Below are positions 10,250-31,854 of a stretch of DNA of 32,000 nucleotides, in pieces. Within the stretch, counting starts at the first letter, position 1, and every line of letters starts with the position of its first letter. The notes below the pieces were generated by a model. The model did not search any database, was not told where the DNA came from, and worked only from the letters and a program-made list of their open reading frames with translations. The translations under genes were made by a program, and so were the position numbers. Source of the DNA: Thermodesulfobacteriota bacterium (GTDB taxonomy: Bacteria > Desulfobacterota > WTBG01 > JAGOGO01); the NCBI GenBank assembly GCA_026625185.1, contig CP113000.1, forward strand, positions 2,325,622-2,357,621. Reading direction: 5' to 3'.

Positions 10250-10489
10250 ATCCTCCGTTCTGCACTTAAATTCAATTCGTCCGGCACTCCAAACCCATCT
10301 TCACCCGGAATTAGTTTGTCTTTTCCTTTCATGTGCTGAATGCAAATGATCGGAAGATTTTTTGCCCTAAACAGGGCTATAGCCACATTGATCCGATATT
10401 CCCCATATCAAAATCATTAGGGCTAATACCCCCTCCATAACTTAGCTGTAAAGCTCCTATTAATCCATTTTTTATGCAAAGGTAAATGG

Positions 10490-11284: not shown

Positions 11285-11322
11285 AGGGTTAAGGATAAAG
11301 GGTTAAAGATTAAGTTTCGAGT

Positions 11323-13590
11323 TTAGGACTTCTGACTTCTGAGTCTTCCTGCAGGCTTTTTGTCACCCTCTTCACCATAAGAATGGTAATAGTAATGATA
11401 ATAGTAGCGGTAGTTAGAGTAATAGTAGCTTTCTTTTTCAAAATTCACGTCATTTAAAACACAGCCTAACACTTTGCCCCCCACTTCAGAGAGTTGTTTT
11501 ATACCTTTCTTAATCGCCGGCCTCGGGGTTGAGGATGCCTTCACCACCACCACCACTCCGTCAACAAGGGTAGACAGGATGGCGGGGTCAGTGACCGAAA
11601 GGATCGGCGGAGAGTCAATGACAATGACATCATACTGTTCCCGTGCCCGCTCAATCATTTCTTTCATTTTTTTTGAATTTAAAAGCTCAGCTGGGTTTGG
11701 GGGAAGAGCGCCGGAGGTTATTATTTTAAGGCCGGGTATGTCCGTATTTTTGATCGTTGATTCTCCGCCGGTGAGAAGCGCGGATAACCCTTTGCCTTTT
11801 TCCAGATCAAAGACCGTGTGAATTCTCGGTCTCCTCAGATCCGCATCTATTAAAAGCACGTTTTTCCCCATGGTGGCAAAGGTGATGGCGAGATTGGAAG
11901 CCAGGAGGGTCTTGCCTTCGAGGGGAAGTACGGACGTTATCAAAAGAACCTTTTTTTCGAGATCCGGAGAAGAAAACAGGAGATTGGTTCTTATGGTCCT
12001 AAAGGCCTCCGCAATAGTTGATTTAGGCTCAGCATGGGTGATTATCTCTTTCTTCTTCAGACCAGTTGAATTGGTAGAAAAGCTTCCCACGACTCCCAAG
12101 AGCGGTATGTTTAAATAGTGCTCCACTTCATCCGGGGTTTTTATGGTGTTATCCAGATATTCGAGGAAGAAGGCTAACCCAATGCCGAGGGTAAAGCCGA
12201 CAATCAGCGCAAGAAAGATATTCTGGAGTTTTTTTGGTTTCACCGGTGTCTCGGGCACGCGTGCGGGATCAACGACCGCAATATTGGTGATGTTTAACCC
12301 TTCGGTAACCGTAGCTTCTTTGGCCCGCTTGAGCAAAGATTCAAATAGGGAGCGGGTGGTGTCGGCTTCCCGTTTTAAGACATCATATTTGATCTGCTTC
12401 TGATTGAGGTCAAGGGCCTCTTTTTTCTTTACTTCCATGGCGGCGATAATGGCTTTTTCTTTGTCTGAGGCTAACCGGGATTCGGTTTCAATACTCTGGG
12501 CGATTTTTCTTACCTCCTGGGCAATTTTCTCCCGTACCCCCCGCATTTCCGATGAAAGTCTCACCATATTGGGGTGTTCCGGGCCATATTTTTGGGAAAG
12601 CTTGGAGTACTCTCCGGAAAGGGCGATATAATTTGCCTGGAGCTCCTGAATTAAGGGGTTTCCCACGACCGCGGGTAATGATTCAACCAATTCCGGCCGG
12701 CCCGAGAATTTTTGAAGCTCTGTGTAGAGCTGCATCTTTTCTATTTTTTCAGTCTGGGCTTTGGTTAAGGCGGCATTTAAGTCATTGAGGCTTTGCAGGA
12801 TGATGCCCTGCCGTTCGCCAAAATCAATATCAATCAAACCTTGTTTTTCCCGGTAGGCCTGCAGAGATTCTTCACTATGCTGGAGCTTCTTTTCTTCTTC
12901 TTTTATGCTCTGGTTAAGCCAGCCCACGGCTTGCTGGGAGGCGGAAAATTTTCTTTCGATGTTGCTTTCGATGAAAAGCTGGGCATGGGCATTGGCGATC
13001 CGGGCTGCCAGCTGAGGGTTTTTAGCTTCGAAACTGACATTGACCAGGCGACTTTGTCGTATGGGCTCAATTCTCAATCTTCCCAAATAAGACTTTATCA
13101 AGAAGTTGTTTTCTTTGTCTTCCTCCAACTGGGGATCGGTTTTTGCCTCAGCAGAAGAGAAAATGTTTTTAAGCCATCCGATGATTCCCTGGAAAATTGC
13201 TCGCAGACTGAAGCCGTTTTTCAAACCGGCAAATTCCGGGTTTTCCTTTAAGGTGAGAGATTTGATTACCTTCAAGACCAGTGCTTTGCTTTTTAAAATC
13301 CCGTATTGGGTTTGGTAATAGTCCGCGTCAGTCTTGTTAACCCGCAAGACTTCTTCGATATCAACTACCTTGGGGTTATCGCTTTCAATCATAACCTGGG
13401 CGGTTGCCCGAAAGATGGGAGTCATACGGAATGACTCTATGGTTACGGTTACGACCACGATGAGCAGAACGGTTGCGATCAGCCACCGTCTTTTAAAAAT
13501 AACTCGGAGGTAATCTCTTAAATGGATTTCTTCTTCAAAAAAATTCTCAGCCATAAATAAAATCCAAAGGTCTAAAGGTTCAAGGGTCAA
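11323..13590 (-). CDS. polysaccharide co-polymerase (PCP-2a) fused to BY-kinase, Wzc/GumC-like
   Basis: Wzz-type N-terminus with a long coiled-coil periplasmic part. Walker A LPLEGKT, A' LLIDADLRRP, B DVIVIDSPP. C-terminal Tyr cluster YYYSNYRYYYHYYYHSY. The track start is TTG at 13590; an ATG alternative exists at 13554 (MAENFF). Confidence 0.9.
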   Translation of the reverse strand: MTLEPLDLWILFMAENFFEEEIHLRDYLRVIFKRRWLIATVLLIVVVTVTIESFRMTPIFRATAQVMIESDNPKVVDIEEVLRVNKTDADYYQTQYGILKSKALVLKVIKSLTLKENPEFAGLKNGFSLRAIFQGIIGWLKNIFSSAEAKTDPQLEEDKENNFLIKSYLGRLRIEPIRQSRLVNVSFEAKNPQLAARIANAHAQLFIESNIERKFSASQQAVGWLNQSIKEEEKKLQHSEESLQAYREKQGLIDIDFGERQGIILQSLNDLNAALTKAQTEKIEKMQLYTELQKFSGRPELVESLPAVVGNPLIQELQANYIALSGEYSKLSQKYGPEHPNMVRLSSEMRGVREKIAQEVRKIAQSIETESRLASDKEKAIIAAMEVKKKEALDLNQKQIKYDVLKREADTTRSLFESLLKRAKEATVTEGLNITNIAVVDPARVPETPVKPKKLQNIFLALIVGFTLGIGLAFFLEYLDNTIKTPDEVEHYLNIPLLGVVGSFSTNSTGLKKKEIITHAEPKSTIAEAFRTIRTNLLFSSPDLEKKVLLITSVLPLEGKTLLASNLAITFATMGKNVLLIDADLRRPRIHTVFDLEKGKGLSALLTGGESTIKNTDIPGLKIITSGALPPNPAELLNSKKMKEMIERAREQYDVIVIDSPPILSVTDPAILSTLVDGVVVVVKASSTPRPAIKKGIKQLSEVGGKVLGCVLNDVNFEKESYYYSNYRYYYHYYYHSYGEEGDKKPAGRLRSQKS

Positions 13591-16050: not shown

Positions 16051-16464
16051 TTACATTGCCGGGCTTGCCGGATGCCTTGGCGGTGGTGGGGGAGGTGTTG
16101 GTGCTGAAGGAGGGCTTAATTCTAACTCTTCGTTTAAGGAACGCACAATAGCATCCACTTCCTTACAGGATAACGGAGCAAGCAATCCTTTCCCACAAGC
16201 TTTTCCGGCGGCTTGAGTGATCTCATCGGCAATAACCGGGTTCATGTAATCCCCGGGTTTAAATCCGTCCGGCGGCATTATTTCTACCTTGGTCAAGGCA
16301 GCAATAGCAGCATCAATTGAGAGGTCTTTTCCCAACCCAAGTTTTTCGGCTAATTTAATCGCGTATTCGCCCTGGGTGATTGAGGAGGCAAAAGCGAATT
16401 GAAACGCAGAAAATAAAAAGAGACCGAACGTGAATACAATTAATGGTGCGAGAATTTTTTTCAT
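16051..16464 (-). CDS. secreted small protein with Pro-rich C-terminal tail
   Basis: Signal peptide MKKILAPLIVFTFGLFLFSAFQFAFA. Tail SPPSAPTPPPPPPRHPASPAM. No family recognised. Confidence 0.5.
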   Translation of the reverse strand: MKKILAPLIVFTFGLFLFSAFQFAFASSITQGEYAIKLAEKLGLGKDLSIDAAIAALTKVEIMPPDGFKPGDYMNPVIADEITQAAGKACGKGLLAPLSCKEVDAIVRSLNEELELSPPSAPTPPPPPPRHPASPAM

Positions 16465-16872: not shown

Positions 16873-16924
16873 TTAGTATATGAATGATGGGATTAAGGAT
16901 CAAGCCAAACCGGAAGGAGGTCAA

Positions 16925-17692
16925 ATGAATTACAACGAAGCCTTAAAAGTGATCAATCCAATGGCCGCGCTTAAATCCCTTAAAATAGAGGGAAAAGAAG
17001 AAGGAGTTTACATTTATTTTCCTTGCCCGGAGTGCAACGAAGACGCAGTAATCAAAGCCTATGGAGAAAAGAAAAATCTCTGGCTCTGCACCAGGTGTAA
17101 AGTTTGCGGACATATTATAACCTTGGCGATGAAAATGGAAGCCCTTAAATTTGAGGAAGCCAAACAATTTCTCCTTAAAAAAGCCATTAGCTCAATCAAT
17201 GAAATTGACGAGGAACTGAACATAAACTACGAGCTTGAATGGTGCGAGTTTATGCAATATGAAAACCTTGACCGGGAAATATGCGAAAAACTGGGAATCG
17301 GAAAGCCAAAAGGAAAAACCAATATGCCTGGTCATCTCGCTTTTACTGTCTTGAATGAAAACCGTAAAAAGGTAGGTTATGTGGGAATCAAAATCGCCAA
17401 CGGGAAGCCCTACATTCCTAAATCATTCCATCCGGAATTCTATCTTTATAACCTATGCTATATAGACCCAGATGATGAAGTTGTGCTTACTCCCGATATG
17501 CTGGATTGCGTTAGGCTCTTAAGCCAGAGAACGCAGGCTATCTCTAATTTTTGGCTTCCCTCCCTGTCCATAAAACAGTTGGAACTTCTTCAGCCGATTA
17601 CATATCTCAGTGTTAAAGGATTTGGAGAAAATACCAGTGAAATAGCGGTAAAGCTGGCTCGTTTTCATGGAAGTTATTATCGGTTTATCTAA
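16925..17692 (+). CDS. DnaG-like protein: C4 variant of the primase zinc finger plus Toprim-like domain lacking catalytic acidic residues
   Basis: A strong GGAGG lies 5 nt before ATG 16925; the track ORF starts at 16880. CPECNEDAVIKAY...LWLCTRCKVCGHIITLAMKMEALKFEEAKQFL parallels the CHC2 finger. GHLAFTVLNENRKKVGYVGIKI..GKPYIPKSF...LYNL parallels GRIxFPIxDxxGxVxGFGGR...KYLNSPET..LYGL. VVLTPDMLDCVRL and LSVKGFGENT replace the EGxxD and DxD motifs. Confidence 0.6.
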   Translation: MNYNEALKVINPMAALKSLKIEGKEEGVYIYFPCPECNEDAVIKAYGEKKNLWLCTRCKVCGHIITLAMKMEALKFEEAKQFLLKKAISSINEIDEELNINYELEWCEFMQYENLDREICEKLGIGKPKGKTNMPGHLAFTVLNENRKKVGYVGIKIANGKPYIPKSFHPEFYLYNLCYIDPDDEVVLTPDMLDCVRLLSQRTQAISNFWLPSLSIKQLELLQPITYLSVKGFGENTSEIAVKLARFHGSYYRFI

Positions 17693-18109: not shown

Positions 18110-18859
18110 TTATCTGACGACTGCTTGAGTCATATCTATAAATAAAATTTCTTCAGGAATTGAAGTGTCTGCAAACCAAATTTGATCCAACCCTTGAGGC
18201 AACCCATCTGGGTAGGCTGATCTTAATCCTTCCCACATGATCCCATCGTTCATCAATGCGATATCGTCAGACTCAACAAGAAGTATTGTCGTCTTATTTC
18301 TAACTTTATAGGGTGATAATTTCTTTATCTTGCGGTCAAGTTGCTCCCTCAAGCGATCGGGTAATGTTTGATCATGAGGTGCGAAACGACCAAAGAGCAA
18401 TCCCGTAAGGCTGCTACTCCTTTTCGCAGCGTAAAATTCAAACGGGATTTCAGGCACACCCTTAATTGCATGGAAACCAATAGGGAGTTTTGGAGCTTCA
18501 TCTAAAATCCAATTTCGTAATGCGGTCGTGATCCTGGACCAATCTTGACCAGTTTGAATTCCTTCATAAGGGAGTGTCAAAACAAGTCTGAAAGGTAATC
18601 CGGAACGGAACTCATCCTCAAGGGGCTTCACTACTCGCACGAACCATGCCCCGTCTCTTCGCTGGTTAGGTATGGTGTCCACGCTAGTGTGCTCGATTGC
18701 GAAGGGCCCTGCTATAGCATCAATTTCAGAGGGCAGTTCTTCATCCGGCCAAGCATCTACTTCGATTCCAGGATGACCCTGGTCAGCAAGGTATTGGACA
18801 AAGAAGCCGATGACCCTTTTATCAGTCAACTTTTGTTGATTCTTTTCTGCATCGCACAT
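18110..18859 (-). CDS. hypothetical 249-aa protein with possible restriction-endonuclease-like N-terminal core
   Basis: Clean 249-aa ORF. SEIDAIAGPFAIEHTSV resembles a D-x(n)-E-x-K hairpin, but with EHT instead of ExK. No family recognised. Confidence 0.6.
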   Translation of the reverse strand: MCDAEKNQQKLTDKRVIGFFVQYLADQGHPGIEVDAWPDEELPSEIDAIAGPFAIEHTSVDTIPNQRRDGAWFVRVVKPLEDEFRSGLPFRLVLTLPYEGIQTGQDWSRITTALRNWILDEAPKLPIGFHAIKGVPEIPFEFYAAKRSSSLTGLLFGRFAPHDQTLPDRLREQLDRKIKKLSPYKVRNKTTILLVESDDIALMNDGIMWEGLRSAYPDGLPQGLDQIWFADTSIPEEILFIDMTQAVVR

Positions 18860-19301: not shown

Positions 19302-21245
19302 CTATCTTTTTAGCAATCCCATTTCGAAGAGAAAGCGTGAAGGTTCTTTGGGCCAACCTCTATATTTTTTGCCATAACTAAGTGTTAATGTTCTAATAGT
19401 TCGGGTTATTGCAACGAAACAATTGCGTCGTTCCTCCTCCATCTCCTGGCTTCTGTCCCCCTTTTTCTTACTCTGAAAGGAGGGCAACTCGTCATCAACA
19501 AGCCCGATTAGATAAACGTGATCAAATTCTTTACCCTTTGCTCCATGGATGGTCATGAGAACAACGGTATTAGCCTTTGGAGGCGGTTCCTTCGAACGCA
19601 TTTGTAACTCTTGTAAGAAGGCCTCTAAGGTAGGTTCTTCTCCCAAGTTTCGTTTTATTTCTCCCATCAATTCTTCCCAAACCAATTTCTCCTCATCATA
19701 ACGAGTAAATACTTCGTTATAAGGATCACTCTCGGCTTGGCGTTGGGCTTGTGCCAGCGAAGTAAACCAGGCCAGTGCAGATTTGCTGAACGCTTGAAAA
19801 TCTCTGCCTCTTACTAAACAACGTGACGTTTCATTCACAATTTCTTTCACGAAGGTTTCTGTAGTTTTTTGATTCAAAAGCCTAATCCAGATTTGTAGAT
19901 AGCCCATACTCAATGCTTGGGATTGCGAGATAACATCTTCAACATCAATTTCCACTTGGGTAAGTTGGGCGAAAGAGCCACACACGGCCTCCAAATAACG
20001 GCGATTTTGTCCATCATTGGCAAGGCGCAAAGTTGAGTGAAGCCAAACGAAGGGAGTGCTTTCAAATTCATCCTTTCGTTGAGAGATGACAGCAGGTAAC
20101 CCTTCGTGCCGCAATGCTATGTCCACGCCATCGAGCAATTTACGATTTCGTCCCAACACAACAACAGAACCAAAATGACCGGAGTGAAGATTTTTGATAT
20201 CCTTTGCTACTTCAGCCGCTTCCGCTTCAACGTCAGGGAAACATTCCAATAAACGCACAGTACCTTTGCCGAGACCATGGCGAAAGGCCTCAAGCGGTTT
20301 TTTGTCGGCGGTTCGCAAAAAGTTATGACGGATAAGATTATTCGCCAACTCTACGATCTCTGGCGGGCACCTGTAGTTCATAGGCAACTGGATGACCATC
20401 GGCGAAAAATCGTTGAGAAGCTCTTTTAGTCGTTCATGACTTGCACCATTCCATTGGTAGATGATCTGGTCATCGTCAGCAACAACGAATAAATTGCGGT
20501 GTTGATCTCCAGCAAGGGCGCGAATAAGGCCGTATTGCGCCTGATTCGCATCTTGAAATTCATCTATACAAATGTATGGATAGACTATTCGATAACGTTT
20601 GGCAAAAACCGGGAACTTCGTCAGTAACTGATAGGTTTTGAGGATTAAAGAATTAAAATCGAGTGCGTTTCGTTTGCATAGCTCCGCTTCATAGGCAGGA
20701 TAAACAGCGGCCATTCTTTCCCCGAATTCTTTATTTTTAAATATTTCACAGCATTGCTCAGGCAAAATAAGAAACGCTTTAAGACGTTGTATAACTGACA
20801 ATGTTTTTTTGTCGAGATCGCTTACCACATCGCTAATCTTTTTCGCTTCTTCCACTGCATTATTCAATACCGCTTGTAAATCGGCATCTTGTGAATATAT
20901 GTGGAAATTGGGGTTGATTCCTAAATGAGTGCCATGTAGGCGCAAAACATCTGCACAGAATGAATGGAAAGTGCCCAAAAAAAGACGCTCTTCCTGACCA
21001 GGCACAAAGTTTGCGACACGACTTCGCATCTCATCGGCTGCTTTGTTTGTGAATGTCAAGCCCAACACACGGAAATTTTCATCAAGGGTCGATTCAAGAA
21101 GACGAGCTATACGACAAGTCAGAACTTTTGTTTTGCCCGAGCCTGGCCCTGCTAACACCAAAAGCGGGCCATCAGCCCATTCTGCAGCTTGTCTTTGAAT
21201 AGGACTTAATTCCTCCCAAGCTTTCATAAGTTCTTTGGTTCTCAT
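19302..21245 (-). CDS. gajB: UvrD/PcrA/Rep-family SF1 helicase, GajB-like partner of the OLD nuclease
   Basis: AGPGSGKT (I), TFTNKAADEM (Ia), CIDEFQDAN (II), VADDDQIIYQWNGA (III), NYRCPPEI (IV), TIHGAKGKEFDHV (V), FVAITRTIRTL (VI). ATGA overlap with the upstream gene at 21242-21245. Confidence 0.8.
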   Translation of the reverse strand: MRTKELMKAWEELSPIQRQAAEWADGPLLVLAGPGSGKTKVLTCRIARLLESTLDENFRVLGLTFTNKAADEMRSRVANFVPGQEERLFLGTFHSFCADVLRLHGTHLGINPNFHIYSQDADLQAVLNNAVEEAKKISDVVSDLDKKTLSVIQRLKAFLILPEQCCEIFKNKEFGERMAAVYPAYEAELCKRNALDFNSLILKTYQLLTKFPVFAKRYRIVYPYICIDEFQDANQAQYGLIRALAGDQHRNLFVVADDDQIIYQWNGASHERLKELLNDFSPMVIQLPMNYRCPPEIVELANNLIRHNFLRTADKKPLEAFRHGLGKGTVRLLECFPDVEAEAAEVAKDIKNLHSGHFGSVVVLGRNRKLLDGVDIALRHEGLPAVISQRKDEFESTPFVWLHSTLRLANDGQNRRYLEAVCGSFAQLTQVEIDVEDVISQSQALSMGYLQIWIRLLNQKTTETFVKEIVNETSRCLVRGRDFQAFSKSALAWFTSLAQAQRQAESDPYNEVFTRYDEEKLVWEELMGEIKRNLGEEPTLEAFLQELQMRSKEPPPKANTVVLMTIHGAKGKEFDHVYLIGLVDDELPSFQSKKKGDRSQEMEEERRNCFVAITRTIRTLTLSYGKKYRGWPKEPSRFLFEMGLLKR

Positions 21246-23170
21246 AATACAGCCTTTGCAACTACGTCTGTGATGATCTTGGCAAAAAATGAAGGAACAC
21301 GTGTGCTGTCGGCACTTGTTCTCCGAAGCTCTTCAAGCAATGCAATAGTGTAGCCGGTTTTATCTGCTCTTATCTTTGAAGCAAGCTCATCTTCGAATCC
21401 TGCCTCGTCGTGCTTCTTAACTAAACTAATCTTGCGTTCAGCAAGAATTTGTACGTACTCTTGTGCAAAGCCATTTTTAATAAGAAACATTTCCAAATCC
21501 ATGCCACTTTCCGGCAGTGGCCGGACAAGCTCTTTGATTTCGTCGGGCAACAGACCACGCATTTCAATCTGTTTCACGAACTCTTGTCCAGCGGCATCAT
21601 TGTCACAGACCATAATCCACGGTGTCTCAAAGGTACGAGCCAAGCCAACAAACGCACCTGGTGATCCGTTGTTTTGAAAGTCGATTACTGTAATTCCAAA
21701 CTGATCCAATGGCTTCTCCAATAGTTCGGCAAAAAATCGGAACAAAAGATACTCACTCTGGCCTTCGCACAATAGCCATGCACGTGCAAACAGGACTTCC
21801 CCTCGAATGCGTTTTGCATAAGTGTCAAGGTCCGCAAGGTCACCGTTGCTGAGATATATCTGTGATTCGCCATAGAGTCGCTTCAGTTGAACATGAATAT
21901 CAGTTTGTCCCGGGTAGATCATGAGCAGTTTTCGATATTCCCGCTCTCCCATCTTGCCATTAACATGGAGAGTGGTGGTGCCCTCATGATAATCAAATTT
22001 CGGTGCATTATTCTTACAAAACTTCAATAACTCTGGAGTGTTTGGCACTTTGACAGAAAATGAACGCTTTACGTAAAGAATTTTGGAAGACGAGCCATTT
22101 CGACGAAACATCCGAATCTGTGTGAATGGGATTTCCTGAATGAAATAGGGTGAGTGGCTTGAGACAATTTTCTGGCTTTTGACTTCGTCCAAATTCCTTG
22201 CAAGGGCGCGCGTCGCTTGGGGATGAAGATGTGCTTCCGGTTCTTCTAAAGCCAAAATGGCCTCGGTCTCTGGCTGAAATGTCGGTTTGAGAAGCACGTC
22301 AATATAGGCTTGAAAAAGAAAAAGAACAGCCAAACTCTGTATGCCTTGCCCATGTCGGGAAAGCGGAAAATCAACTTCATTACCATGTGCCTTGATGACA
22401 ACTACCGATTTCGACATTAAATCCCAAGGCTTGAGGGGCAAAGCCTGTATTGAAGTGTTTTGTCCATCTCCCAGCCACATAATTTTTTGAATGTTTTCTA
22501 AAGTTGATCTTATTTGATCGAGCCTTGGATCTGCCTTCAGAACCGCCTCATTCAGCTTTCCCAACTCCTCACTAAGCATCATTGTTTGCTCTTCACTGAT
22601 TTTAAGATCACGCAGTATTCTTCCCCAGAATTGTGAACGTGGCGAAAACTCAGTGTCTGAATCACGGAGAGCAGACAAATAAAATAGCCGAATATAAGAA
22701 AGAAATCTCGTTAGGTTTCCAGAGCTTGCACCTTTTCCACCCAATGGTTGCCCATCTAATGTAAGAAATTCCCATTTCGTAACGATCTCTTTGGAAGTCG
22801 TATCGTACTTGCTAGATACCCTCAGTCCGATGGAATCCAAATCTTTTAGAGGATCGGTTTGTATAATATCGCTAAGTGCTTGAATCAGAGAATTAGGCCA
22901 TTCATCAGGTTTATCTTCACGAAACCATAGTTCTATAATAATGCCTTCGCTGGTTTGCGGTGAATCGGCAACTTTGGACATATAGTAGTCATACTCGTCG
23001 AATGCTATTCCGCGACCTTGGAGGCTTCGAGGCAATACGATCTTCAATGCGTCAAGAAGGGCTGTTTTGCCGGAGTTATTTTCACCCACTAAAACAGTAG
23101 TGTCCTGGATAGGAATGGACACGTCTACCAAACAACGAAAGTTTTTTACAAAAATCTCCCTGAGCTTCAT
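21242..23170 (-). CDS. gajA: OLD-family ATPase/Toprim nuclease, GajA-like (class 2 OLD)
   Basis: N-terminus KLREIFVKNFRCL...LVGENNSGKTALLDAL (Walker A) and LALEEPEAHLHPQ (Walker B/D-loop). C-terminal Toprim has LLCEGQSE and MVCDNDAAGQ (DxD). Confidence 0.85.
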   Translation of the reverse strand: MKLREIFVKNFRCLVDVSIPIQDTTVLVGENNSGKTALLDALKIVLPRSLQGRGIAFDEYDYYMSKVADSPQTSEGIIIELWFREDKPDEWPNSLIQALSDIIQTDPLKDLDSIGLRVSSKYDTTSKEIVTKWEFLTLDGQPLGGKGASSGNLTRFLSYIRLFYLSALRDSDTEFSPRSQFWGRILRDLKISEEQTMMLSEELGKLNEAVLKADPRLDQIRSTLENIQKIMWLGDGQNTSIQALPLKPWDLMSKSVVVIKAHGNEVDFPLSRHGQGIQSLAVLFLFQAYIDVLLKPTFQPETEAILALEEPEAHLHPQATRALARNLDEVKSQKIVSSHSPYFIQEIPFTQIRMFRRNGSSSKILYVKRSFSVKVPNTPELLKFCKNNAPKFDYHEGTTTLHVNGKMGEREYRKLLMIYPGQTDIHVQLKRLYGESQIYLSNGDLADLDTYAKRIRGEVLFARAWLLCEGQSEYLLFRFFAELLEKPLDQFGITVIDFQNNGSPGAFVGLARTFETPWIMVCDNDAAGQEFVKQIEMRGLLPDEIKELVRPLPESGMDLEMFLIKNGFAQEYVQILAERKISLVKKHDEAGFEDELASKIRADKTGYTIALLEELRRTSADSTRVPSFFAKIITDVVAKAVL

Positions 23171-23338: not shown

Positions 23339-25201
23339 CTACCGAATGACCGTGACAAGACAATCTCGCTTGCTCTGAATGTCCATCTCAAATGTTCCGT
23401 CGTCCACTATCGCGCGTTCGGGGTCGTAGACCACGAACAGAATGAACGATCCTAAAGGATACTTCGTAATGTCTGCGGCAATCCCCTCTGATGCTTTGCT
23501 GGGGGTTGTCGCCTTTCGAATGTACTTTGCTTCTACAATCAAGGCAGCAGCCTTTGCTTCGTGATCTGGCACAACCTTGGCCAAACAGAATGTCGTTGTT
23601 GGAAACTCGCGCTTGAAGTCGTCGCCATGTGCTCGGAGCAAAGCGTCGATCTGATCGTTCACTTCGTTTTCGTTCTTTGGCTTAGTCTTCCTGAATGCTA
23701 CCGGGATGTTTTCCCGGAGCATCGCCGCTATTTGCCCTGCCAACCTTTCAGGATCCTCTTTAAGATACTCTCGGTCCGAAATAAGTTGAAGTAGACTGCC
23801 GCTCCTGACCTTATAACGAAGGTCATCGAGGTGGCGGCGAATATCCGTGAGGGCTACCAGAACCTGCTCACCATGCCTGTGGCATAATTGCCAGACAGCT
23901 TCAACGGCTTCATCCTCGTTGCCAGGAACGTAATCCGTTATATCTGCGAGTTCAGAGAGTCTCGCCAAGGCAAATGCGTCATCCGTTTCTTTAGAGAAAC
24001 AGACCGCCTGCCGGATATAGTCCAACGCTGTTGTTCGTGTCTCTGGAGATTCAATCGGATCGGTGAAGATGTCCTTTGAGTATATCCCTACATTGTCAAC
24101 GTCTTGAAGCCCTGCTGCGTAAGCAGCAAGCCGACGATCAATGCACTGGAAACAACTCCCGCAATGGGTCGCGGTCTCGAGGCGTTGGAACGTTTTGCTG
24201 CAGGAAACGGTGCTGCTGATAAGATTGCGGCCATTGACCCGGCTGAGCAAATCCATTACGTCCGTCTTGGTTTTGTTCCAGAACGGATTCAAGACCGTAA
24301 ACCTTGAGCCATTTAGTTCTGACAGGAACTGGGACATTAGATGAAAGGTCTTCGGATGGGTAGTGCGGCTTGCTCTTGCACTTATCAGGTCTTGCCGTCG
24401 GAGAAGGTTCAATGACGTAACACCGTTTTCGTAGGCGAAAAAGGAGTCAAGGGACAGCCTGTGCGCCAGCGAGAAAGCGATTGAACAGAACAAAAAGGCC
24501 CGCGTGCGCTGGGTCTCCTCCGCCGCTCGAATATGGGAAAGCCCGCAGTCAAAGGAATAGTGGCGAATTCTCCTTGGATATTCAGCCGTCAACGCATCGA
24601 CGAGTTTCTTCTGGGTCCGTTTTGTGCTCGGTTGCCCCGAACGATGGCTTATCAAATAGAGGACTTCGTTCGTTGACTCCAGCCGCTCCAACACGCCTGC
24701 AAGAGAATCCGATCCACCAGAGAACAGGGCAACGGACGAAGGTTCTTTCGGCGCAATGGCGAACTCCTCTCTATCAAAGAGCGAAGTGGGCGGGGTTGAA
24801 TGTCCCGGCACAAAATCGAACAAGTAATCTCTATCTCCAGTCATGAAGAGCAGCGCTGCTGAAAGCTTCTGTTTCACGGAGGTCTGGTTCCAAAAATCAA
24901 CGTCACGTACACGAATCACGAAATGCATGTCACGCGGCCACGCGTGCAACTCCACTGCTTCCTTCGCTCCCCGTTGAGCTGCCCGGTCGGCTGCGAAGAT
25001 GTACGCTGCGATTTCCAACAGATCCAAAATCCGTAGAGGCAAATGGAACACTTGATCCACGAATCGAGGCAGTTGCAGATTGACGTTGCAATCTGGATCA
25101 TTTCTGAAGTAAATCAGCGAGGTCACTTTCGCAGTCTTGGCGAGGTCCTTGGGGCGGCCGGCTCCATTACACAGAAACACGTTTGGAGTCGAGCAACTCA
25201 T
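23339..25201 (-). CDS. three-part fusion: unknown N-domain + QueC-like PP-loop ATP-pyrophosphatase + C-terminal PD-(D/E)xK-type domain
   Basis: VALFSGGSDSLAGV (aa 157-170), RTRAFLFCSIAFSLA, NPFWNKTKTDV and the Zn cluster SC...HCGSCFQCIDRR (aa 334-356). All are colinear with B. subtilis QueC as recalled. The C-terminus has ENEVNDQIDALL...VVPDHEAKAAALIVEAKYI (PD-x10-EAK). Confidence 0.8.
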   Translation of the reverse strand: MSCSTPNVFLCNGAGRPKDLAKTAKVTSLIYFRNDPDCNVNLQLPRFVDQVFHLPLRILDLLEIAAYIFAADRAAQRGAKEAVELHAWPRDMHFVIRVRDVDFWNQTSVKQKLSAALLFMTGDRDYLFDFVPGHSTPPTSLFDREEFAIAPKEPSSVALFSGGSDSLAGVLERLESTNEVLYLISHRSGQPSTKRTQKKLVDALTAEYPRRIRHYSFDCGLSHIRAAEETQRTRAFLFCSIAFSLAHRLSLDSFFAYENGVTSLNLLRRQDLISARASRTTHPKTFHLMSQFLSELNGSRFTVLNPFWNKTKTDVMDLLSRVNGRNLISSTVSCSKTFQRLETATHCGSCFQCIDRRLAAYAAGLQDVDNVGIYSKDIFTDPIESPETRTTALDYIRQAVCFSKETDDAFALARLSELADITDYVPGNEDEAVEAVWQLCHRHGEQVLVALTDIRRHLDDLRYKVRSGSLLQLISDREYLKEDPERLAGQIAAMLRENIPVAFRKTKPKNENEVNDQIDALLRAHGDDFKREFPTTTFCLAKVVPDHEAKAAALIVEAKYIRKATTPSKASEGIAADITKYPLGSFILFVVYDPERAIVDDGTFEMDIQSKRDCLVTVIR

Positions 25202-25986
25202 TTCCCCTCCTCCTCTCGGCGAAGTTCATCGCGAAGCTTGCCGAATGCTATCGCGAGGAATCCCTCGACCTCTCTTTCGCCCAGTACGTGGTCGCGTGCA
25301 TGCGCGTTGAACCAGCCAGCAGCGAAGGACTGCGTAATCTTGGCCGTTTCAAACGCGTGCTTTGATACATCGTCAACATGCGACTTGACATCATGCTGGA
25401 ACTGATTCCGTTGTTGAAGTGATGGAAAAATAGCGGAAGCCACCCTGTCCAGGAAATAGTTGAGATAGCGTTCAGTCAGTCTGCCGAAGAAGAGACGGCT
25501 GAGTTCACAGAAACCAGACCCGGTCCCAAGACGGCGCCAGGATTCAAGGAATTCGCTTGTTGGTTTGAACAGTGGGAGTTGTTTAGTGGCGTTGTCCTTG
25601 TACCATTTTCCGAGAGCATCGGCCGCTGCAGCAAGCGCAAGTTGCCCATACTCGGACGCGGCCTTATCCATGGGCATCTGTTGCCTTAGGGCCTTGACAA
25701 TTGAAAGCAGAGTCGGCTCATCGGGAAGAGAAACACCGGTCGCTTTGAGTTCGCCTATGGGATCGTCAAACCGACATGCATGGGAGAAAACCACCAAGAA
25801 GGTAAAAACCGTCTTGACCGCATCGTCCCGGGAAAGGCTCTCGTACTGACGGCGGACATTCTGAAGTGTTTGGGCTGCTACAGTTTCGACAGGAATGCCA
25901 TCAGCGTACATCGACCTCATTTTCTTAACGAGGTCGACCCATTTCTGCGTCTTTTGCGGAAGCGATGAGACTCTCTCGTGTCCCAT
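25198..25986 (-). CDS. hypothetical 262-aa helical protein, translationally coupled partner of the QueC-like fusion
   Basis: AGAGG SD 7 nt before the ATG. The stop overlaps the downstream start (ATGA, 25198-25201). It starts Met-Gly. No motif recognised. Confidence 0.7.
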   Translation of the reverse strand: MGHERVSSLPQKTQKWVDLVKKMRSMYADGIPVETVAAQTLQNVRRQYESLSRDDAVKTVFTFLVVFSHACRFDDPIGELKATGVSLPDEPTLLSIVKALRQQMPMDKAASEYGQLALAAAADALGKWYKDNATKQLPLFKPTSEFLESWRRLGTGSGFCELSRLFFGRLTERYLNYFLDRVASAIFPSLQQRNQFQHDVKSHVDDVSKHAFETAKITQSFAAGWFNAHARDHVLGEREVEGFLAIAFGKLRDELRREEEGK

Positions 25987-26119
25987 GTTTTACCTCTTTT
26001 CCATCCCGGTTTCCTCCAGGCCAACGTTGCAGATCACTGGCCCCCAGGGGCAGGAAAGTATTTAACTTAGCATTGCCCTGGGGTCGAGATGCATTCGCTC
26101 GTTATACAACTCTTTTGTT

Positions 26120-26416
26120 TTAGGGTTTAATCTGCTTTGTTTTTGATAAGTTCGTTACTTTGACATTTATACCTTTGTGATGAACACGCTTCATTGCCAT
26201 TTCCATGTCATTTTGAGGAACACGAAGAATTTTATTTTTATTCATTTGCGTTTTAAGCCGGAAAAGTGCTTGATCTATTTTCTGAGCAGTGCCACCACGT
26301 TCAACTTCAATTGTTGACTTCCCTCGGATTGCATCAAGGCGACGTTTACCAGGAATAGGCACTTCTGTTCGTGCAGCACTTCCCTTTCCTTTCTTATGTG
26401 ACTTACTTTCAGGCAT
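26120..26416 (-). CDS. hypothetical basic 98-aa protein
   Basis: The internal ATG at 26416 has AAGGAG 6 nt upstream, and I prefer it to the track start at 26524. Sequence MPESKSHKKGKGS...RRLDAIRGKSTIEVERGG (possible D-x9-E-x-E hairpin). Confidence 0.5.
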   Translation of the reverse strand: MPESKSHKKGKGSAARTEVPIPGKRRLDAIRGKSTIEVERGGTAQKIDQALFRLKTQMNKNKILRVPQNDMEMAMKRVHHKGINVKVTNLSKTKQIKP

Positions 26417-26690
26417 AATATCTCCTTTTATTGGCTGTATAAACACCCCTATTAAAATCTCCAATTGAGCTGATTGGTCTCCGCCCCAAAACAAAAAAGG
26501 CCTCTCCCCCTTTTTTTCAGGCAATCGGCCTTCTTTTATTCTAATTAAATTTTAAAACCTTTTCCCTTGCTACCATTTTGAATAAAACCCCTTTTGGTTT
26601 TTATTGTTATTTTTTCTATAGTTACTCCTTAAGAGAAAAAAAGTCAATCAGAAGACTAATCTATTCGTTTTAATTGCTCTTTTTCAGGAA

Positions 26691-26810: not shown

Positions 26811-27095
26811 TTAATATTCCTCAGGGAATAAAACCGTGGTTGCAGACCTGTCTGCCTCCGTAATAACCCATATTTTCTCCCCTTGGTGCTCGTAGGCCGA
26901 GAGGATCCGGAAGCCTTCCTTCAGCGACAGCTCGTTCTCTTGTTTATCCTCCTGGCATAAATCACCCCAATCACCTTTGGCGTGTCTCTTCAGAGACTCC
27001 CAGACAAATTTGGCAACCCCCCCATTATCCACCACTTTGTCGTTTACACCTCGAGTCATCACAACCTGTCCTAATCGGAATTTGGGTGTTCCCAT
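26811..27095 (-). CDS. conserved small plasmid/MGE-associated protein (GDWGDL...ITEADRS.TT.L.PEEY family)
   Basis: RHAKGDWGDLCQEDKQENELSLKEGFRILSAYEHQGEKIWVITEADRSATTVLFPEEY matches a widespread small family I recall from plasmids and ICEs. Its function is unknown to me. GGAGG upstream. Confidence 0.7.
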   Translation of the reverse strand: MGTPKFRLGQVVMTRGVNDKVVDNGGVAKFVWESLKRHAKGDWGDLCQEDKQENELSLKEGFRILSAYEHQGEKIWVITEADRSATTVLFPEEY

Positions 27096-27391: not shown

Positions 27392-28972
27392 ATGCCTTCA
27401 GACAAAACACAAAAGAGTGGTCTGCCCTTTGGAAGCGAATTTCCTCCTTCCCAAGTCGAACCGGCTGTCTTCCCGGAAATGGTTCAATTACTTGAACGTT
27501 TCGATACGGTACGCAAAGAGGTAGGGCAGCAGACAAGCCAAAAACGCAAAGCTGAGCTTGGGCAGTTTATGACCCCCTTAACGGTTGCCCGCTTTATGGC
27601 ATCTCTTTTTTCGCCTTCAACCCTGCAGACAGCACGACTTCTCGATGCTGGCGCAGGGATAGGCTCACTATCAGGGGCTTTTTTGGCTCGCGCAGCCTCA
27701 GGTGGTTTCCGTTTTCAGCATATCCAAATTGTCGCTTATGAGATCGACGCCAGTTTACGAAAGCATTTGTCCCGAACATTGACAGGTTACCAAAGTGGAC
27801 TTGATGTAGATATTTCTGTGTTGCCTAGCGACTTTATTGAAGAAGCAGTAAGGTGCATTCTTGAAGGGACACAACGCTTTACTCATGCGATCTTAAACCC
27901 CCCTTATAAGAAGATTAATAGCGCGTCTCGTCATCGGCTTTTGCTTCGTAGCGTCGGCATTGAGACGGTCAACCTATATTCCGCTTTTGTCGCGCTCACA
28001 ATCGAACTCATGCAACCAGGCAGTCAAGTTGTTGCAATTATACCCCGCAGTTTTTGCAATGGCCCTTACTATAGGCCATTCCGCGAGCTTATCCTCGCCA
28101 AGACAGCGATCAAACACATACACTTGTTCGCCGCGCGCAATCGAGCCTTCAAAGATGATGACGTTTTACAGGAAAACATTATCATCCTGCTTGAACGAGC
28201 TACTCCGCAGGGAAGTGTTACCATTTCCACGTCGACAGACGACAGTTTTACCGATTCCGAAATCCATATTCACCCATTCGATCGTATCGTTTTCCCGAAT
28301 GACCCGGAACATTTTATCCACATTCCAACCTCGCCCGAACGCAACCAGAACGAATTTCTCTCAACTATCCAATATAGCCTTACTGATCTTGGCCTTGAAG
28401 TGTCCACGGGGCCAGTCGTGGATTTCAGACTTAAACCCCACCTGCGACAAATGCCCAAGCCTGGCACTGTACCACTTCTCTATCCGAGGCACTTCTCCGG
28501 GCAGTCAATTGACTGGCCGAAGCAGGGCATTAAGAAACCCAATGCCATACGTAGGAATCAAGAAACCGAAAAGTGGCTTTATCCGAACGGCTGTTATGTT
28601 GTAGTCAGGCGGTTTTCGTCAAAAGAAGAGAAGCGTCGGATCGTGGCGAGTGTCGTTAATCCAGAAATCTTTAGTACCCCCATGCTTGGTTTCGAAAATC
28701 ATCTCAATATTTTTCACTCCCGGAAACGAGGAATATCAGAAAACCTTGCTCGCGGTTTGTCGGTATTCTTAAATTCCACGCTGGTTGACGAGCAATTCCG
28801 TCGTTTTAGTGGACATACCCAGGTTAACGCAACCGACTTGCGTTTACTAAAATATCCCAGCCGTGACGCATTGACTCATCTCGGCCCTTGGGCAAAGAAG
28901 CAACGCGATCTTACTCAACAGAAAATAGATGAAAAAATAAAAAAACTCATATGCCAGAATACGAAAATATAA
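27392..28972 (+). CDS. gamma-class N6-adenine DNA methyltransferase, M.PstI/M.BsuBI-like (Eco57I-type MTase domain)
   Basis: Motif I LLDAGAGIGSLSGAF and motif IV AILNPPYKK. The size (526 aa) and the adjacent PstI/BsuBI-type endonuclease are consistent with this call. Confidence 0.8.
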   Translation: MPSDKTQKSGLPFGSEFPPSQVEPAVFPEMVQLLERFDTVRKEVGQQTSQKRKAELGQFMTPLTVARFMASLFSPSTLQTARLLDAGAGIGSLSGAFLARAASGGFRFQHIQIVAYEIDASLRKHLSRTLTGYQSGLDVDISVLPSDFIEEAVRCILEGTQRFTHAILNPPYKKINSASRHRLLLRSVGIETVNLYSAFVALTIELMQPGSQVVAIIPRSFCNGPYYRPFRELILAKTAIKHIHLFAARNRAFKDDDVLQENIIILLERATPQGSVTISTSTDDSFTDSEIHIHPFDRIVFPNDPEHFIHIPTSPERNQNEFLSTIQYSLTDLGLEVSTGPVVDFRLKPHLRQMPKPGTVPLLYPRHFSGQSIDWPKQGIKKPNAIRRNQETEKWLYPNGCYVVVRRFSSKEEKRRIVASVVNPEIFSTPMLGFENHLNIFHSRKRGISENLARGLSVFLNSTLVDEQFRRFSGHTQVNATDLRLLKYPSRDALTHLGPWAKKQRDLTQQKIDEKIKKLICQNTKI

Positions 28973-29910
28973 AAAGCGTTCTCCAGATCCTCGAACTTCT
29001 CGGTCTTCCCCGCGCACAAAGAAACGAGCGCTCCGCGCTCTGTTTGCTGGCCCTGCTGAATCTTACGCCTAAAAAGACCTGGGCGCAGGCTGAAAGCCCG
29101 CTTGTAGGCATCACACCCATGATGGATTTTAGCCGCAAGCACTACGGCAAGGAATATGCCCCCAACACGCGGGAAACTTTCCGCCGCCAGACAATGCACC
29201 AGTTTATGCAGGCAGGGATAGCGCTATACAACCCCGACAAACCCGATAGGCCGGTCAACAGCCCCAAAGCTGTTTACCAAATCTTGCCCGAAACGCTTGC
29301 CTTACTGAAAACCTATGGTACTAATCAATGGGAGCCCTCGCTAAGGCGGTACCTTTCGACAAGAAAAACCCTTGCCCAGCGCTACGCCAAAGATCGTAAG
29401 CAGACTTTAATACCCGTACAAATTGCACCAGGTAAACAAATCCATATCAGCCCGGGTGAACACAGCGAGCTTATCAAGGCAATTGTCGAGGACTTCGCGC
29501 CACGCTTCGCACCTGGCGCCACATTAGTCTATGTTGGGGACACGGGGGAGAAGTGGAGCTATTTCGATAGAGAACTATTGATCAAGATAGGCCTGACGGT
29601 TGATTCACACGGCAAAATGCCGGACGTTGTTCTCTATTATGGCAAGAGGAATTGGCTTTTACTGGTCGAATCCGTAACTAGTCACGGCCCGGTCGATGGG
29701 AAACGCCACGAAGAGCTGGCAAAGTTGTTTTCCAGCACATCTGCGGGTTTAGTATATGTCACGGCTTTTCCTTCCCGTTCAATCACTGCCCGTTATCTTA
29801 GTGAAATAGCCTGGGAAACGGAGGTATGGGTTGCGGAGTCACCTTCACACCTGATCCATTTCAACGGGGAGAAGTTTTTAGGGCCTTATAGCGAAAAGTC
29901 TGCCGGGTAA
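28951..29910 (+). CDS. type II restriction endonuclease, BsuBI/PstI family
   Basis: The 319-aa C-terminal core MPDVVLYYGKRNWLLLVESVTSHGPVDGKRHEEL matches the BsuBI_PstI_RE signature as I recall it. It overlaps the MTase gene by 22 nt. Confidence 0.75.
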   Translation: MPEYENIKSVLQILELLGLPRAQRNERSALCLLALLNLTPKKTWAQAESPLVGITPMMDFSRKHYGKEYAPNTRETFRRQTMHQFMQAGIALYNPDKPDRPVNSPKAVYQILPETLALLKTYGTNQWEPSLRRYLSTRKTLAQRYAKDRKQTLIPVQIAPGKQIHISPGEHSELIKAIVEDFAPRFAPGATLVYVGDTGEKWSYFDRELLIKIGLTVDSHGKMPDVVLYYGKRNWLLLVESVTSHGPVDGKRHEELAKLFSSTSAGLVYVTAFPSRSITARYLSEIAWETEVWVAESPSHLIHFNGEKFLGPYSEKSAG

Positions 29911-30702: not shown

Positions 30703-31854
30703 ATGTTAAAAACTAATACGTTGTCAAGTAAAAGCCCGTTAAGTTTTTATCATCAAAAGGACGCCTTCTTCTGGCTCTGTCTTGGCCAGGTTCCCGGAGT
30801 AGGCAATATTATTTATAACCGGCTAATTAAAAAGTTTAAAACCCCGGAAAAAGTTTTTCACGCCTCGCCGGAGGAGCTAAAAAAAATTGAAGGGCTTCGC
30901 TCCCAAACGATTGAGGCAGTCGTTGCTTTCAAAGATAACGATTGGGCAAAAAAAGAATTGGACCAGATCGAAAAACAGGGGATTACCTTTTTAACCTTAC
31001 AGGATGAGCGGTTCCCTCGAAATCTAAAAGAAATTTATGACCCCCCGCCTTTTTTATATGTTAAAGGAGAGCTTTGGGAAAAAGGCCACCTCTCCATAGC
31101 AATGGTCGGCTCCCGAAACGCATCATCCTATGGAAAGACAATTACCAAACGTCTTTCCCGAGCCTTGGCCGAACGAGGATTCACGATTGTGAGTGGTTTA
31201 GCAAGAGGGATTGATACCTGTGCCCATAAAGGCGCTCTGGAAGGGGGGGGGAGGACGTTGGCCGTGCTTGGATCCGGCATCGACCTCATCTATCCTTGGG
31301 AGAATAAGGGACTGGCTGAAGAAATTACTCGCCACGGGGCTATTATATCGGAATTTCCTTTGGGGACTCAACCCGAAGCAATCAATTTCCCTCCCCGAAA
31401 TCGAATCATCAGCGGTCTTTCTTTAGGAACCGTTATCGTGGAAGCCTCCTTTCGGAGCGGTTCCCTGGTCACCGCTCGGATGGCCTTAGAACAAGGAAGA
31501 GATGTTTTTGCGGTTCCCGGCAATGTTGATTCTCCCTGGAGCAAGGGAACGAACCGCTTGATCAAAGAAGGGGCGAAACTTATTATGGACCCGGAGGATA
31601 TTATCGATGAGGTGATGCCCCAATACAAAGCGCCAATAACCTCCGGGCAAGAGAAACCTCCGGAGACAAAGGGATTAACGCCTGAAGGTCAAAAAATTTT
31701 TGACCTGCTCGACAGTAATCCCCTGCATATTGACCACCTCATCCAACACAGCGGGCTGCAACCCAATCTGGTTTCGAGCCTGCTCCTTGAGTTAGAAATC
31801 AATGGATTGGTAAAACAACTACTTGGAAAAATGTTTATTAAATGTGAGCGTTAA
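30703..31854 (+). CDS. dprA: DNA processing protein DprA (Smf)
   Basis: MVGSRNASSYG...IVSGLARGIDTCAHKGALEGGGRTLAVLGSGIDLIYPWEN...PPRNRIISGLS...VVEA..RSGSL.TA. Classical dprA-topA synteny. Confidence 0.9.
   Translation: MLKTNTLSSKSPLSFYHQKDAFFWLCLGQVPGVGNIIYNRLIKKFKTPEKVFHASPEELKKIEGLRSQTIEAVVAFKDNDWAKKELDQIEKQGITFLTLQDERFPRNLKEIYDPPPFLYVKGELWEKGHLSIAMVGSRNASSYGKTITKRLSRALAERGFTIVSGLARGIDTCAHKGALEGGGRTLAVLGSGIDLIYPWENKGLAEEITRHGAIISEFPLGTQPEAINFPPRNRIISGLSLGTVIVEASFRSGSLVTARMALEQGRDVFAVPGNVDSPWSKGTNRLIKEGAKLIMDPEDIIDEVMPQYKAPITSGQEKPPETKGLTPEGQKIFDLLDSNPLHIDHLIQHSGLQPNLVSSLLLELEINGLVKQLLGKMFIKCER

Follow-up and report, generated by a model that had tools for sequence, protein, structure and literature searches.

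A two-gene cassette encoding a QatC-like fusion protein and a helical partner

We analyzed a 32,000-nt stretch of the genome of a Thermodesulfobacteriota bacterium (assembly GCA_026625185.1, contig CP113000.1, positions 2,325,622 to 2,357,621), hereafter called the window, and in particular a cassette of two minus-strand genes that lies in it. The first gene encodes an all-helical protein (the partner), and the second a protein in which a QatC-like enzyme is joined through a helical linker to a restriction endonuclease (REase)-like domain (the fusion protein). An earlier note on this DNA had proposed two translationally coupled genes, and both open reading frames (ORFs) and their overlap are present as described: the TGA of the partner gene (25200-25198) overlaps the ATG of the fusion gene (25201-25199), giving ATGA at 25198-25201, and a purine-rich Shine-Dalgarno run, GAGAGGAGGAGGGG, stands at 25204-25217 ahead of the fusion ATG. 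The motifs that had been located in the fusion protein (SGGSDS, NPFWNKTK, the Cys cluster and PD...ExK) were all found again at the same positions. A promoter and terminator scan around the cassette gave a result no better than shuffled sequence.

For the family-wide counts given below and in Table 1, the partner profile was scanned over one genome per species; 80 loci were retained, 72 of them with intact copies. We are highly confident of the architecture of the cassette and of the family-level claims.

Table 1. Features of the cassette and of its surroundings (window positions)
Feature	Position	Strand	Description or basis
Partner gene	25198..25986	(-)	ORF, 262 aa, all-helical; QatB analogue, putative substrate/regulator
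Conserved N-terminal tail, codons 1-16	25939..25986	(-)	MGHERVSSLPQKTQKW; predicted acceptor peptide; Gly2, His3, Arg5, Pro10, Trp16
Shine-Dalgarno-like AAGAGG	25994..25999	(-)	7 nt upstream of partner ATG; sequence read
Translational coupling junction	25198..25217	(-)	GAGAGGAGGAGGGG Shine-Dalgarno run, then ATGA stop/start overlap
Fusion gene	23339..25201	(-)	ORF, 620 aa: QatC-like N-extension + PP-loop core, helical linker, REase-like domain
QatC-homologous region, aa 57-385	24047..25033	(-)	N-extension + QueC-type Rossmann core with Zn site; PADLOC, NCBIfam and PDB matches
SGGSDS PP-loop, aa 161-166	24704..24721	(-)	Pyrophosphate/ATP binding; SGGxDS in 71/72 intact copies
S278-R-T280-T-H-P283	24353..24370	(-)	QatC-type substrate-site motif; aligns to QatC STRTTHP (T276/T278); [ST]R[ST]THP in 70/72
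Zn-binding Cys cluster C334...C347-G-x-C350-x-x-C353	24143..24202	(-)	Aligns to QatC Zn site; CGxCxxC in 72/72
Helical linker, aa 386-508	23678..24046	(-)	Helices in AlphaFold2 model; conserved to ~aa 482 whatever the C-terminal module
PD-(D/E)xK REase-like domain (Pfam REase_DpnII-MboI), aa 509-613	23363..23677	(-)	PF18742; predicted effector
Putative catalytic residues E511 (first helix), D546, E557, K559	23525..23671	(-)	Conservation
Gabija system	19302-23170	(-)	GajB 647 aa, E=4.5e-261; GajA 642 aa, E=1e-214; 4-nt overlap
Type II restriction-modification pair	27392-29910	(+)	Eco57I-family N6-adenine methyltransferase (PADLOC MTase_II, E=1.6e-211) overlapping BsuBI/PstI-family endonuclease (E=3e-152)
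dprA	30703-31854	(+)	PF02481, E=2e-80; borders island
270-aa ORF	16880-17692	(+)	Weak CHC2 primase-type zinc-finger match, E=2e-4, below Pfam cutoff; low-GC (0.37-0.40) left island edge

A QatC-like enzyme distinct from QueC

The PADLOC QatC profile matched the 620-aa protein with E=4.9e-47 over aa 57-385, and QatC chains of the PDB matched it as well (9vlk, E=2e-22; 9zee, E=1e-21), with alignments that begin at aa 58-59. The region upstream of SGGSDS had been taken for an unknown N-domain of ~150 aa; because alignments to the QatC hidden Markov model (HMM) and to the PDB chains begin at aa 57-59 and extend across it, this domain is instead the N-terminal extension specific to QatC. The complete set of QatC signature motifs listed in PMC13329287 was found in the fusion protein, including, besides those of Table 1, RTRAFLF at aa 232, NPFWNKTK at aa 305, P306xxxxTK and E258-N-G. 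The catalytic Asp D60 and D72-x4-R77...W88-P-R90 are present too, with a spacer of 10 rather than 7. Results showed that the QatC motifs are retained in 67-72 of the 72 intact copies, RxRxxx[FY], ENG and CGxCxxC being each kept in all of them. In QatC, the S/T-x-T hydroxyls (T276/T278 in E. coli, T278/T280 in P. aeruginosa) replace the Tyr/Asp pair used by QueC and Cap9 for nucleobase recognition (PMC13279940, PMC13639016), and in our alignment S278-R-T280-T-H-P of the fusion protein corresponds to these two substrate-site hydroxyl residues of QatC.

Canonical QueC also has the PP-loop SGGxDS, a Rossmann-like core and C-terminal Zn-binding Cys, but it is devoid of the extra N-domain, linker and nuclease, and its catalytic motifs are missing in the 620-aa protein. 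The QueC model TIGR00364 scored 15.4 bits against a cutoff of 150.3, and PF06508 matched weakly (30 bits, aa 283-359 only). Thus, of the QueC-type core proposed by the earlier note, the PP-loop enzyme core is indeed complete, while the clade is specifically QatC. By sequence comparison, the 620-aa protein is a member of the QatC clade that lies outside the curated equivalog and is distinct from canonical QueC.

In source records, the annotation reads "7-cyano-7-deazaguanine synthase". This annotation and the PF06508 match, together with the fused restriction-fold nuclease and the location among restriction-modification (R-M) genes, would fit a metabolic QueC, or a 7-deazaguanine DNA-modification system whose REase restricts unmodified DNA. 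We consider both very unlikely. A metabolic QueC was rejected given the TIGR00364 score far below cutoff and the replacement of the QueC substrate residues by S/T-x-T; moreover, QatC cannot replace QueC in vivo (PMC13329287). As for DNA modification, no TGT/DpdA or other recurring third gene was found nearby, and variants bearing a TIR domain (see below) make no sense for modification-dependent restriction. Against both, the strictly conserved Gly2 tail of the partner points to a protein substrate. The annotation of the fusion family as 7-cyano-7-deazaguanine synthase is therefore misleading.

A nuclease-like and exchangeable C-terminal module

The C-terminal domain of the fusion protein matched PF18742 with E=1.5e-10 (41.2 bits, gathering cutoff 27), and so did 20 of 20 trimmed homologous domains (best E=2.2e-13). 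It also matched the PADLOC model Aga_Helical-REase (PDLC02411), which is associated with prokaryotic Argonautes (pAgo), with E=1.5e-7. P545-D546...E557-x-K559 is encoded at nt 23525-23569. The family alignment shows no variation at E511, P545, E557 and K559 and at least 90% conservation at D546 and H547, and PD...ExK is kept in 65 of the 66 copies of REase type. The AlphaFold2 (AF2) model of aa 366-620 (predicted local distance difference test, pLDDT, 87) begins with the helical linker and continues into a helix-strand-strand-helix-strand-helix-strand domain, in which E511 lies on a helix, D546 at a turn, and E557 and K559 on a beta-strand; this order of elements is compatible with the alpha-beta-beta-beta-alpha-beta arrangement of the restriction-endonuclease fold. 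A Foldseek search of this model against PDB and BFVD returned nothing significant (best PDB match BstEII, E=0.05), and a domain-only profile found no match among PDB sequences. Because Foldseek gave no significant three-dimensional match, the fold is assigned from the HMM match and residue conservation. The PD-(D/E)xK module predicted by the earlier note is therefore borne out as regards the family, above the cutoff of PF18742, and the E...PD...ExK residues, though not by a structural match to the fold.

We also compared the C-terminal modules across the family. The first ~482 residues (ending ...SGSLLQLI) are 60-68% identical among relatives whose C-terminal module differs, and the linker up to ~aa 482 is probably the counterpart of the C-terminal helical extension by which QatC binds its partner. 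Among the 72 intact genome copies, 66 have a REase module and 5 a TIR module, that is 71/72 together. The TIR variants (PF13676, E~1e-13 to 1e-15; Thoeris ThsB match, E=7e-62) come from Poribacteria and Armatimonadota metagenome-assembled genomes (L032, L037, L039, L040 and L058), and in the first of these loci the partner starts with MGHIR, not MGHER. An exchange of REase and TIR on a constant core is a classical signature, typical of an immune effector position, and the same swap on a constant sensor or regulator is a pattern of pAgo, CBASS and Avs systems. The two modules found here also match the short-pAgo Helical-REase and the Thoeris ThsB TIR, respectively. The difference lies in the constant part: those systems use an Argonaute, an NTPase or a sensor of cyclic nucleotides, the pair a QatC-like ligase with a protein partner. 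Therefore, the exchange of modules, REase, TIR and others, strengthens the reading of the C-terminal domain as an effector.

Other relatives carry one of two kinds of ~200-aa coiled-coil tail, HTH-like in look, in proteins of 682-702 aa; a Pfam search with the tails of these variants gave nothing at E<=0.1, and their helix-turn-helix (HTH) nature is thus putative. One further relative (P0103; 1048 aa) bears a sigma54-type AAA+ ATPase and an HTH on the QatC-like core, and more distant pairs carry additional C-terminal tails of no assigned kind. The HTH-like and AAA+ variants (L004-L006, L019/L020, which correspond to L103 of IMG/VR, P0103 and L104) lie between integrase and replication genes or on viral contigs, with replication-type neighbors such as a DUF5906 primase, AAA_24, DUF669, an excisionase-like HTH_17 and a prim-pol. 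As they are found in such places, part of the family must be carried by mobile elements, and the output of these versions may be regulatory rather than killing.

Such relatives, so similar over aa 1-482, raise the alternative that the pair is primarily a regulatory sensor or switch of mobile elements, acting for instance on the expression of prophage or island genes; its nuclease version would then serve for addiction or exclusion in the manner of toxin-antitoxin modules and not as a dedicated defence against phages. This appears unlikely to us, considering that the REase version analyzed here belongs to a defence island of the chromosome, that the 32-kb window contains no integrase, and that REase and TIR modules together make up all but one of the intact genome copies. 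In addition, the HTH nature of the tails is putative except for P0103, and defence systems borne by phages and mobile elements are common, so that a mobile context is no argument against defence.

A partner that resembles QatB

The partner matched no family of Pfam, NCBIfam or PADLOC, and no PDB entry by sequence or by profile. In its AF2 model (pLDDT 82), all structured elements are helices, and residues 1-12 form a disordered stretch (pLDDT <50). In the alignment of the partner family (A1), the extreme N-terminus is the most conserved segment, M1, G2, H3, E4, R5, P10 and W16 being invariant. The partner starts with MGHER in 76 of the 80 genome copies. The family comprises 972 clusters at 50% identity, and M-G-H-x-R-(L/V/I)-x-x-(L/I/V)-P-x-T-x-x-W is retained in the most distant relatives among the matches listed.

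The size of the partner, its position upstream of a QatC-like gene and its Met-Gly start had been noted before as features of QatB, and they hold. Homology to QatB was not found by sequence, by profile or, significantly, by structure. The NCBIfam QatB model and three PADLOC QatB models did not match the partner; as a control, the PADLOC QatB models matched the QatB of Larkinella at E=6.5e-58 and missed the partner of the same locus. We also extracted nine genuine QatBs from annotated plasmid qatABCD operons (alignment A2), and hhalign of the partner family against them gave a probability of 0.4%. With Foldseek against the PDB, the QatB chain 9y02_A had the highest probability listed for the partner model, although its match was not significant (E=1.1, TM 0.30/0.35). 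As far as sequences tell, the likeness to QatB is one of analogy, in position, overlap, size, helical body and Met-Gly tail, with homology not detected. A very remote homology is conceivable, since even within canonical operons several QatBs bear no annotation other than "hypothetical".

This is the case for the plasmid qatABCD of Acinetobacter, Methylobacterium, Vibrio and Agrobacterium (L013-L016), where QatB is annotated "hypothetical protein". In L014 and L016 the annotated QatB start is also too far downstream, the real start (MGTS.../VGTS...) lying upstream. Mis-annotation of QatB is noted in PMC13279940, matching this observation.

Both Gly2 and the Pro/Trp segment of QatB are indispensable to its role in defence (PMC13279940, PMC13639016). 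The QatB tail reads MGTS...GP...PL(I/V)PxW in the alignment of genuine QatBs and MGHxR in the partner, whose invariant His3 and Arg5 could reflect a recognition or a chemistry different from that of QatB. The two proteins also differ in their overall conservation, with a mean column identity of 66% for the partner family and 41% for QatB, which is poorly conserved outside its tail. Outside the tail of the partner, D54, E112, D123, R173, Y174, R181, R193, E213, E254 and E258 are invariant, and two blocks, GxGFCELSRLFFGKLTERYLNYFLDR and SKHAFETAKITQSFAAGWF, are nearly so. This high conservation suggests an activity of its own or several interfaces.

The same conservation, with so many invariant charged residues outside the tail, and the lack of detected homology to QatB would agree with a partner that is an inhibitor, an antitoxin or an independent enzyme binding the fusion protein, whose QatC-like domain would then act on a small molecule or nucleic acid. 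We find this improbable, as conservation in the partner is strictest at its extreme N-terminus, from Gly2 on, and a Gly2 N-terminus is the feature required of QatB and CdnD as acceptors (PMC13279940; bioRxiv 10.1101/2025.04.06.647259). Moreover, the AF2 model predicts the tail to be disordered, as expected of a peptide that would be inserted into an active site.

A widespread pair that stands on its own

The partner was found in 109 genomes of more than 20 phyla, which include Chloroflexota/Dehalococcoidia, Verrucomicrobiota, Bacteroidota, Desulfobacterota, Armatimonadota, Poribacteria, Bacillota, Omnitrophota and Latescibacterota. Co-conservation of the two genes, on which the earlier proposal could have failed, proved strict: in 80 of 80 loci, each from a different species, the partner gene is directly followed by a QatC-like gene on the same strand. 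The two genes overlap by 4 nt in 46 loci, by 8 nt in 13 and by 1 to 14 nt in 10 more, and a few of the 80 copies carry frameshifts or interruptions. Searches that started from the enzyme revealed equally paired genes in very different neighborhoods.

We then looked for other components, using for QatA and QatD HMMs built from genuine sequences. The QatD HMM matched in 0/80 loci, and a strong QatA match was obtained in 1/80, where it is part of an adjoining complete qatABCD (L098, Larkinella punicea). Library scans revealed no QatA, QatD, CD-NTase, Cap10 (TGT-like) or type IV CBASS effector among the neighbors in the window, and no CD-NTase, Cap10 or effector recurs as a neighbor family across the 80 loci. 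Clustering of the flanking ORFs gave no third family in more than 7/80 loci; the commonest neighbors of the pair look like type I R-M subunits. The absence of QatA, QatD and CD-NTase reported before thus extends from the window to the family, and the pair is not embedded in qatABCD or CBASS operons. It is a system of its own, a self-contained two-gene module.

The Larkinella locus (NZ_QOWE01000022.1, 6001-12762) is informative in this respect. A pair made of an MGHER partner and a QatC-REase fusion lies directly upstream of a complete canonical qatABCD, with qatA at 8753-10696 (QatA, 703 bits), qatB at 10705-11574 (QatB starting MGTSTSRNGPRPTTPLLPDW) and qatC from 11571 (QatC, 414 bits). Two QatC paralogues therefore stand side by side, each with its own partner, and since both reside together in one genome, the pair and qatABCD are distinct, coexisting systems. 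The score of the canonical Larkinella QatC compares with 184-190 bits for the QatC part of the fusion lineage.

These data also bear on whether the cassette is a decayed or truncated canonical qatABCD that lost qatA and qatD. The QatC-like core and the gene order, a helical Met-Gly protein followed by a QatC-like protein as in qatB-qatC, are what such a remnant would have. A remnant is nevertheless hardly credible, given an arrangement that is intact in 72/80 species genomes over more than 20 phyla with its catalytic motifs kept, a QatD that is found in none of the loci, a Larkinella pair adjoining a qatABCD with its own QatB and QatC, a QatC part scoring so far below canonical QatC, and a partner that belongs to a different, highly conserved family. 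This explanation was rejected, having failed both the co-conservation and the co-residence tests.

As a side observation, divergent QatC-like proteins without QatA or QatD, 26-30% identical to E. coli QatC, are also encoded on a Rhizobium sp. WL3 plasmid (L012, 3693-7436) and on a Natrinema plasmid (L011, 4222-6987); in one case the flanking genes encode a 190-aa hypothetical protein and a member of the XRE family, and in the other the host is an archaeon. More non-canonical QatC-based modules probably exist.

Comparison with known systems

The closest parallel we drew is with QatB-QatC of QatABCD (Gao et al. 2020; PMC13279940, PMC13376578, PMC13639016). The pair shares with it the QatC N-extension, the PP-loop core, the Zn site, the S/T-x-T and the other signature motifs, as well as an upstream overlapping gene for an all-helical protein (~260-290 aa) with a flexible Met-Gly N-terminus and a conserved Pro and Trp. 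On the contrary, QatABCD has QatA (a KAP NTPase) and QatD (a TatD nuclease), whereas the pair lacks both and carries a fused nuclease, TIR or other module. QatB begins with MGTS and is less conserved than the MGHxR partner, which shows no detectable homology to it, and QatABCD is found in Pseudomonadota, while the pair is for the most part found in uncultured Chloroflexota, Verrucomicrobiota, Bacteroidota, Desulfobacterota and groups of that kind. The QatC region of the fusion protein, finally, falls below the NCBIfam QatC cutoff. Considering the absence of QatA and QatD, of a detectable QatB, and of an equivalog-level QatC, the pair cannot be assigned to QatABCD.

In type IV CBASS (Wassarman et al. 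2025), a QueC-family PP-loop enzyme, Cap9, also acts with a Met-Gly partner, CdnD, whose Gly2 amine, at the end of a flexible tail, is modified by N-terminal deazaguanylation, licensing immunity. Cap9 differs in being minimal (~185 aa) and in keeping the QueC Tyr/Asp, and its substrate is a CD-NTase; the system also depends on Cap10 (TGT-like) and on a distinct effector activated by cyclic nucleotides. No CD-NTase, Cap10 or such effector was found here.

A survey of qat loci distinguished seven configurations, 98% of them canonical and none like the pair (PMC13434339). A similarity-network study of PF06508 reported that only ~34% of QatC-cluster genes have qatA/qatD neighbors, and discussed neither the rest nor any REase fusion (PMC13329287). 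We found no description of a QatC/QueC-nuclease fusion or of a stand-alone pair in the searchable literature, and the structural QatC papers mention no fusions. Within this literature, the two-gene QatC-REase architecture is apparently undescribed. The earlier suggestion of a candidate undescribed two-gene defence cassette is thus supported by co-conservation, by autonomy and by the literature search, with a function that is predicted from sequence and analogy.

Proposed mechanism and significance

We consider it reasonably probable, by analogy, that the two genes form a stand-alone immune module that works in a QatBC-like way and represents a lineage sister to the QatBC core. Against some phages, QatBC suffices on its own for defence (PMC13279940); the absence of QatA and QatD is therefore less anomalous than the earlier note assumed. 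QatB Gly2 and the QatC active site are essential, and a peptide from the N-terminus of QatB was detected in NDG-modified form (PMC13279940, PMC13376578, PMC13639016), the NDG-type adduct on QatB having been seen by liquid chromatography-tandem mass spectrometry (PMC13639016).

By analogy with QatB-QatC and CdnD-Cap9, Met1 of the partner would be removed because residue 2 is Gly, and the Gly2 amine of the short flexible tail would enter the QatC-like active site. An ATP-activated (adenylated) carboxylate, 7-carboxy-7-deazaguanine or another acid, would there be ligated to Gly2. The modification state of the complex, modified or unmodified, would keep the fused nuclease inactive until infection, upon which the nuclease would cleave DNA, or the TIR variants degrade NAD+, and phage replication would be stopped, probably at the cost of the life of the cell. 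As QatD of the canonical systems binds to QatB, giving a QatBCD complex (PMC13639016, PMC13434339), a tethered nuclease is a plausible functional replacement of it; the suggestion that the nuclease fused to the QatC-like enzyme may substitute for the TatD protein QatD, already put forward in the earlier note, thus keeps its plausibility.

Several points weigh against this scheme. The fusion protein scored 184 bits over aa 58-384 with the NCBIfam QatC model (NF041925), whose curated equivalog cutoff is 280, and the partner matched QatB neither in the QatB models, nor by hhalign, nor significantly in Foldseek. With a partner tail of ~12 aa, compared with 30-90 aa in QatB, the docking geometry is uncertain. 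Foldseek also gave no significant match for the C-terminal model. The C-termini of some relatives, coiled-coil/HTH-like or sigma54 AAA+, look non-toxic and are found in prophage-like settings. Published work has defined the reaction of QatC itself only in part, and the Kranzusch group could not reconstitute it (PMC13279940). Finally, defence, N-terminal modification and nuclease activity of the pair are predictions drawn from sequence and analogy.

More tentatively, and with less confidence than in a QatBC-like mechanism, the pair may define an acceptor family of its own (Gly2-His3-x-Arg5...Pro...Trp), possibly with a non-NDG adduct or chemistry, that acts as a switch driving interchangeable outputs. 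These might be a PD-(D/E)xK nuclease, a TIR NADase and, in (pro)phages, AAA+ or DNA-binding modules perhaps controlling transcription of the mobile element.

Several papers of 2026 established QatBC as the minimal defence unit of QatABCD, and all of them called the path from QatB modification to phage restriction unknown; according to them, QatC activity has resisted in vitro reconstitution. With a nuclease or a TIR domain fused to a QatC-like enzyme, activation would be readable as DNA cleavage or NAD+ loss, and such an explicit effector domain could make the killing mechanism of QatBC testable. The short, nearly invariant acceptor peptide would be convenient for mass spectrometry and peptide assays. 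Moreover, the roughly two-thirds of "QatC-cluster" proteins that have no qatA/qatD neighbors (PMC13329287) include at least one large, coherent and widespread system. Its partner is missed by the QatB models of PADLOC-DB v2.0.0 and NCBIfam, and its enzyme is mis-annotated as 7-cyano-7-deazaguanine synthase.

Genomic island around the cassette

The cassette lies in an island that spans ~16.5-30.5 kb of the window, bounded at one end by housekeeping genes (polysaccharide export and two-component) and at the other by dprA. The profile matches of GajA, GajB and the R-M genes (Table 1) confirmed the defence-island context, with the cassette placed between a Gabija system, from which it is separated by a 168-nt gap, and a type II R-M pair. 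The cassette, with a GC content of 0.52-0.53, is richer in GC than its flanks, which have ~0.42-0.46 toward Gabija and 0.39-0.47 in the opposite direction, up to the R-M genes. No tRNA and no integrase were found in the window.

Several smaller minus-strand ORFs lie in or near the island. Those at 18110-18859, 26120-26524 and 26811-27095 (249, 134 and 94 aa), the first of them just downstream of gajB, had no significant match in Pfam, NCBIfam or PADLOC, and a 137-aa ORF at 16051-16464 had none in Pfam; these four are possible additional defence or accessory genes. The 270-aa ORF at the left edge could be a remnant of a mobile element. At the opposite border, dprA has a parallel elsewhere: on the unrelated P0103 contig, a DprA fragment lies directly upstream of the partner gene, and the vicinity of dprA may be a recurrent insertion site.

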